This document shows, piece after piece, positions 4,409 through 55,321 of a stretch of DNA of 64,000 nucleotides. A program made the position numbers and the translations under genes. Origin of the DNA: Minisyncoccota bacterium (lineage in GTDB: Bacteria > Patescibacteriota > Minisyncoccia > Phycocordibacterales > SW-6-46-9); the NCBI GenBank assembly GCA_040905385.1, contig JBBDRP010000002.1, positions 679,010 through 743,009 of the forward strand, written 5' to 3'. The first letter of the stretch is position 1; each line of letters begins with the position of its first letter. Below the pieces are notes generated by a model that saw only the letters and a list, made by a program, of their open reading frames with translations, was not told where the DNA came from and made no database searches.

Positions 4409-4689
4409 GTAAATAACAGTATATTAAATATTTACCTTAAAATCAAGTGGAGTGAGTCCCTCTATTGGATTTACCGTTCCAAAGCTAGTAATATAAGTAT
4501 AGACAACTTATGCCTAAACCACTGGTGTGTGGCATGGCGCAATACATGAAATCCATCCAAGGTACAAAGCTCCTCGTCAGGAGCACCTTGGATGGTTGTC
4601 GGCGGAAACGTCGGCAGATGGGCCTCGCCCATCAACTGGCGGGGAGCTTTCTGCATCTCCGCTCATTACAAAACTAACCAAAACCATCT

Positions 4690-14780: not shown

Positions 14781-15008
14781 AGGTTGTAAAGATAAAGGCG
14801 TCTCCCGCCGGAGACGCCTGAGTTTATAATCATCTCTCCTTGCGGATGGAATTAGCACCTTACTTTCGCAGGTTGCCGGTGGGTCACAGGGCCAGATCCC
14901 TCACCACACTCACGATAATTATTCAGTTGTGTTTACATAGTAACATCAACTCACGCCAGAAAGAAAGATTGGGATTAGCTTCGTTTATTACAATTTTTGT
15001 CCTCTTGA

Positions 15009-27160: not shown

Positions 27161-27207
27161 GTATCCTGGTGACAGGGTAGTAGAAAATAAAAGCTATTTT
27201 CCTCTGT

Positions 27208-27282
27208 GCGGCTGCCAAGATTCGAACTTGGGACCTCACCGTTATCAGCGGTGCGCTCTAAACCAGGCTGAGCTACAGCCGC
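27208..27282 (-). tRNA. tRNA-Ile (anticodon GAU)
   Basis: Acceptor gcggctg/cagccgc, D-arm gctc-agcctggtt-agagc, anticodon stem caccg/cggtg with loop ctgataa, T-arm ccaag-ttcgaat-cttgg. Confidence 0.85.
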
Positions 27283-30304: not shown

Positions 30305-31944
<1,640 letters not shown>

Positions 31945-50421: not shown

Positions 50422-50778
50422 ACATTCACATCGTCGCTTCGCTCCTCTTTAATCCCTTCGGGCCTGCTTATTTTCTATCTCACTTCGTTCGATAAAGAAA
50501 ATTCTCTAACAAGACCAGATAAAAAGTAAAGCAGATTACTTTTTATCCCACGGTTCTCAACGCTCGCACTGCTCGCTGCTCTCCGTCACGGGAAAACTAG
50601 AGTTTTCCCGACCCCTTTCCTGGTTCAAATCCGGTCTCATCATCCATACAAAAGTAAAAGAAAAAGCCGGCACAAGGCCGACTTTTCTTTCACTAGCGCG
50701 GGCTAGTGGACGATGTTGGAACCGAGATAAGAGAGTATAAGGATTATATAACAATTCCCAAAATTTAAAGCAAACTAG

Positions 50779-51939
50779 TTACTTCCTTACGATAAAAATC
50801 GTATTGATATACTCAACTTCACCATTGGCTAATTTTTCTTTTATCTCGTGCTCAAATTCATAATAAGACTTCAGATCCATTTCAAGCCACAGTCGTAAAA
50901 CTTTATACAACTCATCCACTGAACCTGCACTAACCTTACAATCCACATCAACTTGCTTATATTCAATCTCTAGATCATCTAGTGTTCTAGTAAGTTTATC
51001 GTATGTGTATTCATACTTCTTACCCTTTTTATCAAATACATAATTCTTTAAGTCTGCATAATCTTTTGTTGGTTTATGTGCGACAAATAGCGAGATACCT
51101 TCATCGGAGAGTAAATTGTGAACTTTCTCAACCGCTGATTTCTTATTATCAAAATAATAAAGGACATGTGAAGCGATAATAGCGTCATATTTCTGGTCAG
51201 TTTCCCAAGTCTCGAAATCGGCGTGGATCACCTCCTTTGAAGTATTCATGTAATCACGAACGTAACTTGTATTCTTCTCTACGATAGATATATCCTTTAT
51301 GCTTTGAGGAAAATCATCTGCCTTAGAAAGAGTATCGAAACCAGAACCGATATTAAGTAGATTACTAGGCTTATGCTCGTTTAGTATATCTACAATCTTT
51401 TGCTCAACTTTTTGTTTTTCATCAGAGTGATTTACAAAATTTTCAAACAATATTTCTGGGAACCAAAAATTCCCTTTCTTTTCTAGTTCAGAAATAGCCA
51501 CAGTTGCTGACCACAACATATTAAAATACTCCCTATAGCTATCTGCTATGTGCCTATCCTTAATAATAATCACACGTGGATTAGAAGGATCATCCCAATT
51601 AAGCATATCGATTGTGTTGCCGTATATATTCACTCCCACCTTTGTTATAAGTCCTAAAGGCATATAGCGAACCTGAACCAATGGAATAGACTCATAAGTT
51701 TTTCCCAGAGCCTTTACATCATCGTTATATAAAATCTTTGTCTTAATACCACGCTCAGAGCGATCATGGACATAATTTACAAAAAAATCGATAGCTTTCT
51801 GAAAGTCGGGGTTTCCTGATCGAGCCCCAAACACCAAAACCTCCTCTCCCTCTTTAAGATCTTCATTGATAGAATAATAGTATTCCTTGATATTTTCAAA
51901 GCCCTCTATCACCTCGACATTTGATTTGCTCGATTTCAT
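50779..51939 (-). CDS. two-domain protein: unknown N-terminal domain + class I SAM-dependent methyltransferase
   Basis: 386 aa. The C-terminal half carries motif I LLNIGSGFDTLS and the post-I acidic motif DISIVE. Confidence 0.6.
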   Translation of the reverse strand: MKSSKSNVEVIEGFENIKEYYYSINEDLKEGEEVLVFGARSGNPDFQKAIDFFVNYVHDRSERGIKTKILYNDDVKALGKTYESIPLVQVRYMPLGLITKVGVNIYGNTIDMLNWDDPSNPRVIIIKDRHIADSYREYFNMLWSATVAISELEKKGNFWFPEILFENFVNHSDEKQKVEQKIVDILNEHKPSNLLNIGSGFDTLSKADDFPQSIKDISIVEKNTSYVRDYMNTSKEVIHADFETWETDQKYDAIIASHVLYYFDNKKSAVEKVHNLLSDEGISLFVAHKPTKDYADLKNYVFDKKGKKYEYTYDKLTRTLDDLEIEYKQVDVDCKVSAGSVDELYKVLRLWLEMDLKSYYEFEHEIKEKLANGEVEYINTIFIVRK

Positions 51940-51941
51940 GA

Positions 51942-52613
51942 TTATATTTTAACAAACTTACACACCATAAAAGTTGGGTAGTAATCACCACCAACTTGCT
52001 GGGCACTAGTATCAGAAAAATCACTCTCTTCTGTAATTGATGTCAGTTTCATTTTCTTTAATACATCTTCATCAAAATACTCCGAAAATGTATGTGATAG
52101 TTCTGTAGCAACAATTTCACCCTTAAATAAAACTGAACGAACTTCTTCTTGTTCATAATAATCCCTGTATTTTTCTTTCTTTTCCAAAAATTGGCGAATT
52201 GGATGAACGGTCAGATACAAAATAGTAGCCCCAGACTTTGCTACTCTAGCTAACTCCATGAGACATTCTTTGAGGTCCTTTGATGTTTGGAGGGCGTATT
52301 TACTAACAACCAAATCAAAACTGTTATCTTCATATGGAAGATCTTCCATTCTTCCAACCTTTACAACGTCTTTAGAAAACTTAGAGTTAGCAATTTCAAC
52401 CAATTCTTCAGATGCGTCAACTCCAGAAATCTGAGCACCTTTACCTTGGTAATAAGTTAAGTCAGTCCCATCCCCACAAGCAACATCTAACAAGTTCTTA
52501 TTATTTAGGTCTTCATCAAGGATCTCGTAAAAAATATTTCTACTAATAAGTGTCTTGCCAACAGAGTCAGAAAAATCCGATGCGAAGGAGTCGTATTGTT
52601 TCTCATTACTCAT
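51942..52613 (-). CDS. class I SAM-dependent methyltransferase
   Basis: 223 aa with motif I LLDVACGDGTD, motif II VDASEE and LVVSKYALQ. Confidence 0.75.
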   Translation of the reverse strand: MSNEKQYDSFASDFSDSVGKTLISRNIFYEILDEDLNNKNLLDVACGDGTDLTYYQGKGAQISGVDASEELVEIANSKFSKDVVKVGRMEDLPYEDNSFDLVVSKYALQTSKDLKECLMELARVAKSGATILYLTVHPIRQFLEKKEKYRDYYEQEEVRSVLFKGEIVATELSHTFSEYFDEDVLKKMKLTSITEESDFSDTSAQQVGGDYYPTFMVCKFVKI

Positions 52614-52737
52614 GAGAGTAAATTATAACACCTAATCACCTACCATACAGTAAGCGGGTTTATGTCGAATATGTGCATGGTTCAAATTCCATTTGCCCCA
52701 AAAATAAAAGCCCCCACCTAGGGGCTTTAAATCAATG

Positions 52738-52813
52738 CGCGGGCGAACGGATTTGAACCGTCGATCTTCCCCGTGACAGGGGGATGTGTTAAACCAGACT
52801 ACACCACGCCCGC
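52738..52813 (-). tRNA. tRNA-Asp (anticodon GUC)
   Basis: Acceptor gcgggcg/cgcccgc, anticodon stem tcccc/gggga with loop ctgtcac, T-arm gacgg-ttcaaat-ccgtt. Confidence 0.85.
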
Positions 52814-52824
52814 ATTGTCAAGTT

Positions 52825-53490
52825 TTACCTGCTTTTTAGAAAGATTTCAAACTTTTCCCTCTTTCTACTTAAAAACAGATCACTGACTAGATTACCGTAC
52901 ATTACTTCATAAAGCAACAATGAATCGCTAATACTGTATTGCAAAGAATGTGCTTTATCGGCCTCTGACAAGCTCCCTTTCCCCATTCCAGCATTCTCCG
53001 CCAATAACTCACTTAAATCTTCTAGAAAGCCAACAGAAGAGGAGGTAAACCTGGTTGTAATACCCACACTATTCACCTCTCTACTAGCGTGAATAGTACC
53101 GACCCATACCGTACCGTCACCATCAAAGTAACCACGTACGAAGTCTCCCGTAAACTCTTTAGGTACATCAGGAAAACTGAGTATCCTGGTCTTTCTTGGA
53201 GTAATACCCAAACTCCTGAGGTCCGAAAACATGTCCTTGCTACCTATTTGCAAATGATATACGTCTTGATGATTATCGGGTGTCGCTCGCCTGCCGATTT
53301 TGTGCTCAGAATCAAGAGCGGTCTTTACTTGCTCTATCAACTCCTTGTCAACGGAGGTGAAGTCTAAATACTTGGTACCGCGCTTGGTCTCATACATACT
53401 GCCGTCAGCAGCAAAGAAGCCTAGTACATAAGCCATATCGGGTGACCACTCTTTAAAGAAGTCTTTATTTACCTTTCGTTGAATAGGCAC
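52825..53490 (-). CDS. LAGLIDADG homing endonuclease (two-motif, single-chain)
   Basis: 221 aa. Motif 1 is AYVLGFFAADGS and motif 2 is VRGYFDGDGTV. Its stop codon lies 11 nt upstream of the tRNA-Asp 5' end. Confidence 0.85.
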   Translation of the reverse strand: MPIQRKVNKDFFKEWSPDMAYVLGFFAADGSMYETKRGTKYLDFTSVDKELIEQVKTALDSEHKIGRRATPDNHQDVYHLQIGSKDMFSDLRSLGITPRKTRILSFPDVPKEFTGDFVRGYFDGDGTVWVGTIHASREVNSVGITTRFTSSSVGFLEDLSELLAENAGMGKGSLSEADKAHSLQYSISDSLLLYEVMYGNLVSDLFLSRKREKFEIFLKSR

Positions 53491-53721
53491 TAATTACAGC
53501 GTATCACGTGACAGGATATATTGTTAACCACTTTTAATACGTCAATCAGTGTATGACGTATTGATTTGGGTGTAATCCCTCCTCCCCGACTCAATATGTA
53601 GGATTTGAACCACGGTCCGTTACGCTCTATCGCTTCGCGATAAAGAGCGTTTGCAGAGCAACCACCTAAAACGCAAAGAAGGTTGCGTTTTAGCCTCAGC
53701 TTTATTAGACATTTTTTAATG

Positions 53722-53795
53722 TGTCGGGGGGCAGAATTGAACTGCCGACCTTGACTTTATGAGTGTCACGCTCTAACCAACTGAGCTACCCCGAC
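53722..53795 (-). tRNA. tRNA-Met/Ile2 (anticodon CAU, elongator-type)
   Basis: Acceptor gtcgggg/ccccgac, D-arm gctc-agttggtt-agagc, anticodon loop ctcataa, T-arm ggcag-ttcaatt-ctgcc. The loop-closing pair of the anticodon stem is a mismatch. Confidence 0.7.
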
Positions 53796-53920
53796 AAATG
53801 AGGGACAAAATAAAAGCGTACTTTCATTTTTCCCGAATGCTGTCGAGGCAAGATCTTCTTACCCCGACAAATGATCGTTCTTTACCCCTCACAGTATAGC
53901 GACCAGCGCGCCGTAGTTCA

Positions 53921-53945
53921 AGAAAAAAGCCCCCGAAGGGGCAAT
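53921..53945 (-). terminator. intrinsic terminator (gcccc-ttc-ggggc + T tract on minus strand)
   Basis: Downstream of the minus-strand gene 53971-54927. Confidence 0.6.
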
Positions 53946-53970
53946 TTTCCAGTCTTTTTTTTATACTTCT

Positions 53971-54927
53971 TTATTCCTCGTCATTATCGTCGTCGCTATC
54001 TTCATCGTCCTCTTCGTCAGAATCATCATCTTCAAATTCTATTACCGCCCTAACCTCCTCTTCCGTTAGATCTGTACGAGATACGATTTCAGCAATTGCT
54101 TCTTCCTTGTCAGTTGTCTCTAGATTAAATTCTTCCTCGCTTCCGTCAGAGTAATCTATCTTAACCTCGGCTTTGCCATCATCAAACTCGACCTCTATCT
54201 CCAGCTCATCATCGTCATCGCTTTCATCGTCATCTTGATCAAAGCGATCAAAGATTACACGCAAACGTTCCTTTAGCTCTTCCGGAATACTAAGTCGGTC
54301 GATGTCTGGACCACGACGTGATGAACGCTCATCAGCTGCTTCTCCATCATCGTCAGAATCATCATCACTGTCATCGTCAGAATCATCATTAACATCATCC
54401 CCAGCAAATAGTCGCTGAATACCTGGAGCCCGCAAAAGTCCTGGTGGTGTGATACCAGAGTTTCCAGCTCCATCCTCGATCAAGCTACGAATTCGAGCTA
54501 TTGTTTGTTCATCTAACTCTCCATCGTCCGCAACACCAATCTGCTGCTGCAGTCGAGCGACGGCCTGCGATGTCAGTGGACCGTAATACCCAGTTGTTAG
54601 GCCTTCTGGGTAAATGCTTCGGTCCTGAGCCAGAAATTCCTGCAGTCGCTGTACGCGTTCTCCACGATCACCCTGGCGCATACTCTGCCCGAAGACTGCT
54701 GCTTCATTACTTTCTTCATCATCATCCGAATCATCTGTAGATTGACCTCGCAGCGATAATACTCGCTCCTGAAGCTCGGCTACCTGCTCCTGAAGCTGTC
54801 GCACCTGCTCCTGAAGCTGAGCGGTAATTGAGTCATCTTCGCTCTGTGCCTGCACCGAGACACCACCAATCAAGGCTAGTGTTACGACGAGCGCAGCCAC
54901 GAATCCAATTTTGGTAAAAGATTTCAT
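53971..54927 (-). CDS. secreted acidic protein with peptidoglycan-binding (PG_binding_1) domain
   Basis: 318 aa with a signal peptide, coiled-coil QLQEQV repeats, the PG-binding motif GDRGERVQRLQEFLA...GYYGPLTSQAVARLQ, and very long D/E/S tracts. Confidence 0.7.
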   Translation of the reverse strand: MKSFTKIGFVAALVVTLALIGGVSVQAQSEDDSITAQLQEQVRQLQEQVAELQERVLSLRGQSTDDSDDDEESNEAAVFGQSMRQGDRGERVQRLQEFLAQDRSIYPEGLTTGYYGPLTSQAVARLQQQIGVADDGELDEQTIARIRSLIEDGAGNSGITPPGLLRAPGIQRLFAGDDVNDDSDDDSDDDSDDDGEAADERSSRRGPDIDRLSIPEELKERLRVIFDRFDQDDDESDDDDELEIEVEFDDGKAEVKIDYSDGSEEEFNLETTDKEEAIAEIVSRTDLTEEEVRAVIEFEDDDSDEEDDEDSDDDNDEE

Positions 54928-55091: not shown

Positions 55092-55250
55092 ATTTCACAT
55101 AGACACAGCCTCGTTCCCGACCCCTCGACTTTGAAAACCCTCGGTTTTCAATACTTTCCAACACGGGAACGAGGAGTTCAAATCCTTAGTGCTATAGACA
55201 AAATTCCCTTGGTATTCAGGGTGACACTAATATATTCGATTGAATCATTG

Positions 55251-55321
55251 TTGCGGGGGCCGGATTTGAACCGACACCTGGAGGTTATGAGCCTCCCGAG
55301 GTACCATTCCTCCACCCCGCG
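55251..55321 (-). tRNA. initiator tRNA-fMet (anticodon CAU, C1xA72 mismatch)
   Basis: Acceptor cgcgggg/ccccgca with an unpaired C1-A72, D-arm gagg-aatggta-cctc, anticodon stem ggagg/cctcc with loop ctcataa, T-arm gtcgg-ttcaaat-ccggc. Confidence 0.7.

Follow-up and report, generated by a model that had tools for sequence, protein, structure and literature searches.

Within a 64-kb stretch of a Minisyncoccota bacterium genome (64,000 nt, positions 679,010 to 743,009 of contig JBBDRP010000002.1, GenBank assembly GCA_040905385.1; hereafter the window, in whose own numbering positions are given), a gene for a LAGLIDADG homing endonuclease lies between two transfer RNA (tRNA) genes, tRNA-Met upstream and tRNA-Asp downstream (Table 1). 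A first-pass annotation made from the sequence had recognised an open reading frame (ORF) with two LAGLIDADG motifs and had proposed that it was a former intron-borne gene or an enzyme directed against a tRNA gene, at a locus rearranged since. Our comparison places the ORF, as a typical representative, in a large family of free-standing LAGLIDADG homing endonucleases linked to tRNA-Asp, and suggests tRNA-Asp as the probable target.

An intact, single-chain LAGLIDADG endonuclease

The ORF call, the Pfam match and both motifs agreed with the earlier description, and the distances given there, 230 nt from the start codon to tRNA-Met and 11 nt from the TAA stop to tRNA-Asp, proved exact in the ARAGORN and Rfam predictions. 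The GTG start is credible because the resulting N-terminus, MPIQRKVNKDFF, fits the family consensus, MPIYKKVNKDFF. Pfam LAGLIDADG_3 (PF14528) matched the protein in two stretches with E=8e-17, and the PF00961 profile reached 4.5e-4. In an alignment of 36 sequences with ~50% identity, A28-D29-G30 and RGYFDGDG are invariant, and both catalytic aspartates, D29 (codon 53404-53406) and D125 (codon 53116-53118), are therefore retained, as expected of the single-chain enzyme described before. Loss of these residues, as in a degenerate maturase, combined with the absence of intron-like RNA, would have spoken against the earlier reading; D29 and D125 are unchanged in 36/36 homologs, so this refutation does not apply.

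The AlphaFold 2 model of the protein (predicted local distance difference test score 93.6, predicted template modelling score 0.90) comprises two alpha-beta-beta-alpha-beta-beta-alpha halves, the order of secondary-structure elements expected for the pseudo-dimeric LAGLIDADG fold. Foldseek against the PDB returned 2dch (I-Tsp061I) as the best match (2.8e-9), followed by 1p8k (I-AniI), the Tli VMA intein nuclease, E-DreI, I-DmoI and I-SceI, the top matches being monomeric LAGLIDADG homing endonucleases; a sequence search of the PDB gave a marginal match to I-Tsp061I only. Neither Pfam nor the model revealed a domain beyond the two LAGLIDADG domains in the 221 aa, nor an additional helix-turn-helix (HTH), and the WhiA profile scored under its cutoff. 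Homologs of ~220-226 aa number more than 3000, among them an NCBI protein from a Candidatus Paceibacterota metagenome-assembled genome that is 100% identical to ours. The closest relative in the locus comparison described below, L001, encodes a protein with 71% identity, and the ratio of non-synonymous to synonymous substitution rates (dN/dS) was 0.07 between this pair and 0.07-0.13 in five other close pairs, with dS near saturation. Overall, the gene, present once in the 64-kb window, encodes what sequence and structural model describe as an intact, constrained, single-chain two-domain LAGLIDADG enzyme with predicted cleavage activity.

Table 1. Features of the endonuclease locus in the window, and selected loci of relatives
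Feature	Position	Strand	Remarks
LAGLIDADG homing endonuclease gene, free-standing	52825..53490	-	221 aa; begins with GTG and ends with a TAA of its own
LAGLIDADG motif 1, LGFFAADGS, residues 23-31	53398..53424	-	A28, D29, G30 invariant in 36 homologs
LAGLIDADG motif 2, VRGYFDGDGTV, residues 118-128	53107..53139	-	R119-G126 (RGYFDGDG) invariant in 36 homologs
Spacer of 230 nt accompanying the ORF	53491..53720	-	Proximal ~75 nt conserved in L001, distal ~190 nt not
Putative extended -10 element, TGATACGCT	53498..53506	-	Positional conservation; family consensus TGnTATAAT
Target mimic / putative operator, TGGTTAA-CAATATAT-CCTGTCACG	53507..53530	-	Half-sites and 8-nt spacing as in canonical tRNA-Asp
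T-loop-like string, gtaggatttgaaccacgg	53601..53618	-	Not supported as a tRNA remnant
tRNA-Met(CAT), elongator type	53721..53795	-	ARAGORN, Rfam; left cassette boundary
Initiator tRNA-fMet (C1xA72)	55250..55321	-	Upstream member of the conserved fMet-Met-[endonuclease]-Asp array
tRNA-Asp(GTC), intron-less, divergent D-arm GTGGTGTAGTCTGGTTTAACAC	52737..52813	-	ARAGORN, Rfam; predicted resistant target allele
Terminator-like hairpin and T-run after tRNA-Asp	52707..52728	-	Probable end of the transcription unit
tRNA-Ile/tRNA-Thr side of the 16S rRNA region	27206-27282	-	Separated from the 16S gene by ~3 kb
Split tRNA-Asp in relatives, examples	L013:5657-5950; L022:1130-1463; L039		Related loci range from L008 to L087
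Empty site L198			Met-Asp spacer 78 nt; filled relative L039/L051; flanking protein identity 79-89%
Empty site L194			Met-Asp spacer 47 nt; filled relative L003/L010; flanking protein identity 64-74%
Empty site L191			Met-Asp spacer 82 nt; filled relative L015; flanking protein identity 60-86%

A native arrangement across Paceibacteria

A scan of GTDB with one genome per species identified relatives of the endonuclease in at least 519 species, from which 80 loci were retained for locus comparison; these span Kaiser-, Nomura-, Wolfe-, Taylor-, Giovannoni-, Yanofsky-, Harrison-, Lipton-, Vogel-, Moran- and Campbellbacteria. A same-strand tRNA-Met was located within 700 nt upstream of the ORF in 53 of the 70 loci with enough room, and two upstream tRNA-Met genes were seen in many loci. 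Downstream, tRNA-Asp was present in all 77 loci with room, intact in 42, split by an intron in 34 and behind a tRNA-Val in 1. The order tRNA-Met, ORF, tRNA-Asp is the native, conserved arrangement across Paceibacteria, a class of ultra-small bacteria of the candidate phyla radiation (CPR), and its recurrence in dozens of species-level genomes contradicts the rearrangement that had been supposed for the locus.

The ORF and tRNA-Asp frequently overlap. In 18 loci the stop codon is formed by U8-A9-G10 of the tRNA (10-nt overlap), and 12 further loci overlap by 15 or 21-23 nt, giving 30 in total. The ORFs of these 30 species have no stop of their own and end on a TAG within tRNA-Asp; RNase P processing of the overlapping tRNA would yield non-stop mRNAs and may further brake expression. 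The window and L001 represent a sub-lineage with its own TAA stop 11 nt before tRNA-Asp, and the window ORF is co-oriented with the tRNAs, with no terminator between it and tRNA-Asp.

Rfam searches of 52500-54100, at gathering thresholds and also at E<=10, detected the two tRNAs only and no group I intron core (RF00028), which confirms that the ORF is free-standing. The T-loop-like string reported earlier, gtaggatttgaaccacgg, is indeed present in the 230-nt spacer, but its status as a tRNA remnant is unsupported: its flanks form no T-stem, nhmmer with tRNA profiles returned E=0.25, an 11-mer of it recurs in a coding region at 50622, and L001 has unrelated sequence at this place. The operator and promoter portion described below makes up the proximal ~75 nt of the spacer. 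A structured or conserved RNA in the spacer was also considered and discarded; the fold z-score was -2.5, but the distal 190 nt could not be aligned to L001, and the spacer had zero Rfam matches.

An ORF-less group I intron splits tRNA-Asp in relatives

In the 34 loci with a split gene, a group I intron of 203-260 nt that contains no ORF interrupts tRNA-Asp(GUC) between U35 and C36; the window has no such intron. ARAGORN called no tRNA-Asp in any of them; the ORF overlaps a 5' half ending in ...CCUGU, and the 3' half (CACG...) resumes 203-260 nt further on. The 3' intron boundary is a G in 27/27 mappable insertions, and the visible 5' ends carry GCAG, which could form P1 with cUGU, including a U-1•G wobble. 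RF00028 matched the L022 intron with 83.6 bits (E=1.5e-19) and the main intron type (L044, L115) with 42-44 bits (E~1e-8), the latter under the gathering score. Because ARAGORN reports no tRNA-Asp when the intron is present, split genomes may appear to lack this tRNA. With no intron in the window, and with the introns of the compared relatives ORF-less, inside tRNA-Asp and downstream of the ORF, the suggestion that the ORF was once intron-borne finds no support.

The introns share their insertion point (after U35), P1 (cuGU/GCAG) and core motifs with Wba81.Asp.4Ug, the one seed of class 'Asp.4Ug' in the preprint by Williams on bacterial tRNA group I introns (bioRxiv 10.1101/2020.01.27.920355). 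That preprint, in its available part, is confined to intron mapping and mentions no linked endonuclease; the tRNA-Asp of the window differs in having no intron. In one Harrisonbacteria genome, a second group I intron (L074:7197-7407, RF00028 62.4 bits) was observed downstream of the endonuclease gene and tRNA-Asp, at a distance of ~1.5 kb.

Integrity of the predicted target is associated with the intron

Canonical tRNA-Asp contains two half-sites, TGGTTAG-N8-CCTGTCACG, which extend over ~24 bp from the D-loop to the anticodon loop, and the intron insertion point falls within them. With loci of carrier species counted as independent and shared ancestry ignored, both half-sites were perfect and in register in the carrier's own tRNA-Asp in 23/35 intron-bearing vs 1/43 intron-less loci (p=4.6e-10). 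Similarly, the 31-nt canonical 5' half (GTAGCTCARYTGGTTAGAGC-N6-CTGT) was found in 20/35 intron-bearing vs 0/42 intron-less loci (Fisher p=2e-9). Intron-less carriers show odd tRNA-Asp D-arms with compensatory stems (GTGT, GAAC, GAGG, GCGA, GATC), and other changes comprise a 'TAGTAGC' insertion or C32U. The D-stem reads GCTC in 80% of the tRNA-Met/tRNA-Thr genes nearby vs 45% of intron-less tRNA-Asp genes.

The window follows the latter pattern. Its tRNA-Asp has TGGTT displaced by one base and a D-stem GTGT/ACAC; because of this 1-nt register shift the left half-site scores 4/7, and the target pattern did not match the gene even with 2 mismatches allowed. The window thus combines presence of the endonuclease gene with a diverged target and, its tRNA-Asp being intact, shows the system without an intron. 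The enzyme would cut the intron-less allele at or near the insertion site, and the intron may then confer immunity; the near-exclusive co-occurrence of canonical site and gene with the intron bears on this indirectly. More broadly, we consider it fairly probable that the endonuclease targets the intron-less canonical tRNA-Asp and that carriers gain immunity either through the intron or through divergence of the target.

A copy of the predicted target overlaps the putative endonuclease promoter

The half-sites recur upstream of the endonuclease gene itself (Table 1). In the window, 53507-53530 is the sole match to the composite pattern at <=1 mismatch, and at two mismatches it is joined by one probable chance site (18576); shuffled sequences gave a mean of 0.06 matches. 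The tRNA-Asp profile also matches here, at 53502-53527, and the operator region is common to the window and L001. Across the family, the upstream motif reads TGGTTAG-tataatgt-CCTGTCACG-TGnTATAAT, and CTGTCA was present in 46/82 upstream spacers vs 2 expected, most commonly starting exactly 23 nt before the start codon. When anchored on CTGTCAC, the upstream and tRNA-Asp consensuses share TGGTTAG at -16..-10 and C-CTGTCAC-G, with equal 8-nt half-site spacing and 16 positions in register. At intron-less loci, the left half-site is better preserved in the operator than in the carrier's own tRNA (6.1/7 vs 4.5/7, Wilcoxon p=6e-4); the own tRNA of intron-bearing loci scores 6.95/7.

In the window, the extended -10-like element TGATACGCT ends 7 nt before the GTG start and no Shine-Dalgarno sequence is visible ahead of it, which suggests a leaderless mRNA. 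The homing-site-like sequence overlaps this predicted promoter, as in autorepression of the I-TevI type, and by analogy the promoter copy probably allows the enzyme to repress its own gene. We also considered the motif as an RNA mimic of the anticodon arm, a minor rival only, since its flanks do not pair. One clade (L017, L022, L026, L039, L051, L052, L067, L070) carries a rearranged upstream motif, TGTATAG-TGTATAAT-A-CTGTCATG, in which the right half-site overlaps the ATG and the TATAAT box lies between the half-sites, so operator/promoter geometry is not uniform in the family.

Empty sites outline a replaced cassette

Loci without the gene were found by a metagenome scan with the tRNA-Asp 5'-half pattern. 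Most matches follow tRNA-Val in other phyla, so the pattern is not CPR-specific and no gene frequency can be derived from the scan. It also yielded Paceibacteria arrays of tRNA-fMet, tRNA-Met and tRNA-Asp without the ORF, three of which could be paired with filled relatives of the same flanking gene order (Table 1). In these pairs, homology stops 1-2 nt past tRNA-Met and restarts 2-10 nt ahead of tRNA-Asp, the entire short Met-Asp spacer being swapped for a spacer-plus-ORF cassette in the filled loci. For L198 and L039, the tRNA-Met genes are identical and the tRNA-Asp exons 100% identical. Some close relatives thus have the endonuclease gene while others do not, the pattern of a putative mobile cassette with the tRNA genes as homology arms. 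Spacers of L039 and L001 contain a duplicated tRNA-Met 3' fragment, L039 has duplicated tRNA-Asp 3' ends and L015 an apparent partial tRNA-Asp 5' copy; such duplicated fragments may be recombination scars. A neighbour-joining tree of the endonuclease from 80 carriers, compared with NCBI taxon labels for signs of vertical or horizontal descent, was star-like and poorly resolved, and the labels were unreliable; intron-bearing and intron-less loci interleave on it.

Other features of the window

Between tRNA-fMet and elongator tRNA-Met, which are ~80-170 nt apart in many relatives, the window has an inserted gene (53971-54927, -) for a secreted-looking 318-aa protein, which contains a PG_binding_1 domain and long stretches rich in Asp/Glu/Ser. 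Directly downstream of tRNA-Asp lie two adjoining class I S-adenosylmethionine (SAM)-methyltransferase-like genes (50779-52613, -; 223 aa and 386 aa); the equivalent place in L002 and L005 is occupied by an RsmI-like TP_methylase, unlike the pair in the window. Past the tRNA-Asp terminator, at 52676-52702 (+), we noted an inverted tRNA 3'-half-like piece, CATGGTTCAAATTCCATTTGCCCCA, which reached only E=1.1 with the tRNA-Asp profile; L039 has a similar inverted tRNA-Asp 3' fragment downstream of tRNA-Asp.

Further away, the 16S ribosomal RNA (rRNA) gene (30309-31944, -) measures 1636 nt against a model of 1533 positions. No 23S gene follows it within the window, and ~3 kb with an inositol-monophosphatase-family gene and two unannotated ORFs separate it from tRNA-Ile/tRNA-Thr, so the rRNA genes look unlinked. 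Rfam also identified a LOOT RNA motif at 4511-4633 (+; 65.4 bits, gathering score 46.4) and a SAM-I riboswitch aptamer at 14827-14921 (-; 61.9 bits).

Discussion

We propose the following mechanism. The enzyme would recognise a ~24-bp segment of canonical tRNA-Asp(GUC) genes that have no intron, a site located immediately downstream of its own gene. Entry of gene-bearing DNA into a gene-less cell would lead to cutting of the essential, single-copy tRNA-Asp gene, and repair would copy the donor segment, so that the short Met-Asp spacer is replaced by the spacer-plus-ORF cassette with the boundaries seen in the filled loci. Carriers would be protected in one of two ways, either by the ORF-less group I intron splitting the site at U35|C36, which would amount to collaborative or trans homing, or by compensatory divergence of the tRNA-Asp D-arm, the route to which the window would belong. 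The half-site copy over the extended -10 element would probably let the protein repress its own leaderless transcript. Taken as a whole, this would describe a chromosomal gene drive on an essential tRNA gene across a CPR class, with uninvaded, intron-protected and D-arm-remodelled states and self-limitation through the promoter copy of the target; we regard it as plausible and put it forward tentatively.

Several observations weigh against this proposal. The target is deduced from association, the association statistics disregard shared ancestry, 12/35 intron-bearing loci have no perfect left half-site, and the intron-less carrier L085 has both half-sites intact. Empty sites are canonical by construction because the search pattern required a canonical tRNA-Asp, which biases both their apparent state and their frequency. 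A mere conserved promoter, or an element acting at the RNA level, could also account for the upstream motif, and the window genome has no intron at the locus, so that the collaborative part is not visible there.

A domesticated, host-beneficial role, in which the protein is a vertically inherited DNA-binding factor, for instance a regulator of the tRNA-Met/tRNA-Asp unit, and no longer mobile, would likewise be compatible with strong purifying selection and with the very broad, deep distribution at a single locus. Uniform length at ~50% identity, dN/dS of 0.07-0.13, the conserved binding-site-like motif overlapping the promoter and the co-orientation with the tRNAs without a terminator before tRNA-Asp are all in line with domestication, and because deep, constrained conservation at a single locus fits it too, we give this explanation appreciable weight while considering it unlikely. 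It leaves the association between intron and target integrity unexplained, and same-order close relatives lack the gene, with the Met-Asp spacer replaced rather than decayed; moreover, both catalytic aspartates are invariant, unlike in WhiA-like forms, which lose them, and an extra HTH domain is missing. Another scenario, a fixed selfish gene that swept long ago and is now a functionless passenger without a target, perhaps with a catalytically silent copy in the window, appears quite improbable to us. After fixation, the homing cycle leaves an endonuclease without substrate, and the tRNA-Asp of the window is indeed not a canonical site; yet the ORF is full-length with all family-invariant residues kept, dN/dS is 0.07 against a relative of 71% protein identity, the operator is conserved, and susceptible empty sites persist in related lineages.

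The remaining alternatives tie the protein to the intron. It could chiefly act as a maturase that aids folding or splicing of the tRNA-Asp (or an rRNA) group I intron, with linkage to tRNA-Asp reflecting co-expression and the upstream motif mimicking, as RNA, the anticodon arm of tRNA-Asp for translational feedback. The ORF-less intron just downstream in 34/77 loci, I-AniI and the bI3 maturase among the structural neighbours and the anticodon-loop sequence within the motif speak for such a role, which we nevertheless judge very unlikely: 44/80 tree carriers, the window included, have no intron in tRNA-Asp and yet an intact, constrained ORF, the flanks of CTGTCAC in the motif form no anticodon-like stem, and transcription, judged from the -10 element, probably starts downstream of the motif. 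In addition, small IC3-type tRNA introns such as that of Azoarcus self-splice without protein. That the endonuclease was formerly intron-encoded and became stranded between the tRNAs by rearrangement, leaving a tRNA fragment in the spacer, is the least credible account and is already contradicted. The T-loop-like 11-mer at 53601 and the fact that CPR LAGLIDADG genes are best known from rRNA introns (PMC11270868) could be cited in its favour, but the arrangement is kept in ~77 species, the window has no intron core, the introns of relatives are ORF-less and downstream, and the T-loop-like fragment is neither significant nor conserved.

The proposed homing system has parallels in phages. In cyanophage S-PM2, free-standing F-CphI is encoded beside the psbA group I intron and acts in collaborative homing (Zeng, Bonocora & Shub 2009, as discussed in PMC6083498 and PMC2988022). 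As there, the endonuclease gene lies outside the intron, an adjoining gene would be targeted and an ORF-less intron sits inside the presumed recognition site; such an intron is therefore expected to give immunity and to be co-inherited. F-CphI, however, is an Endo VII-like phage enzyme with a protein-gene target, whereas the present family is LAGLIDADG, resides in bacterial chromosomes and would target a tRNA gene; furthermore, more than half of the carriers here would use target divergence rather than an intron, and cleavage at the insertion site is predicted. T4 provides SegB, a free-standing GIY-YIG endonuclease among tRNA genes, and mobE, responsible for trans-homing of the nrdB intron (PMC2988022; PMC2790892). 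Shared with these are the free-standing endonuclease in a tRNA cluster, inherited with flanking tRNA DNA, and the potential to mobilise a neighbouring intron without its own endonuclease. The differences are the nuclease family, the cellular host, a family spanning an entire bacterial class, and an ORF fixed at the 5' end of one tRNA, often overlapping it. Physical overlap of ORF and tRNA and the two alternative immunity routes proposed here are further differences.

For the promoter copy, the closest precedent is I-TevI, whose late promoter is covered by an operator resembling the homing site, through which the enzyme represses its own gene (Edgell et al. 2004, as summarised in PMC2988022). 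In both cases a homing-site-like sequence overlaps the promoter of the endonuclease, which here is predicted from sequence, and the differing central bases of the copy could permit binding without cutting. I-TevI is a modular GIY-YIG enzyme, unlike the LAGLIDADG family described here. We know of no LAGLIDADG enzyme shown to autoregulate in this fashion.

LAGLIDADG endonucleases as such are not new to CPR bacteria, and Brown is said to have reported them in 2015 from 16S/23S rRNA insertions. CPR genes of this kind described so far lie inside rRNA insertions (PMC11270868, PMC11809585, PMC8172020), including the endonucleases encoded in 16S/23S insertions according to Tsurumaki et al. (PMC11270868). 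Those enzymes share the phylum, superfamily PF14528 and two-motif monomers with the present family; they are intron- or insertion-encoded, whereas the family here is intergenic, linked to a tRNA and equipped with its own predicted promoter. Our literature search returned no description of a free-standing, tRNA-Asp-linked LAGLIDADG family, only the intron class in one preprint, and as far as this search showed the family was previously undescribed.

For genome annotation, the family explains LAGLIDADG ORFs that overlap a tRNA gene, and the intron-split tRNA-Asp explains why this tRNA goes 'missing' in many CPR genome bins. The conserved promoter copy provides a concrete 24-bp specificity prediction, and the 221-aa protein a compact meganuclease scaffold for which a site is predicted. 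Almost all known examples of free-standing homing endonucleases and of collaborative homing with ORF-less introns come from phages; in the present case, the chromosomes of hundreds of bacterial species would follow the same logic, using another nuclease family and an essential tRNA gene that exists as a single copy. Should this hold, it would represent the first collaborative homing in cellular genomes and the first LAGLIDADG autorepressor, and unusual tRNA sequence diversity as well as the acquisition of tRNA introns could be explained by the action of an endonuclease. Together, the three natural states constitute a comparative test of whether introns spread as protection against a nuclease, and of nuclease-driven diversification of a tRNA gene.

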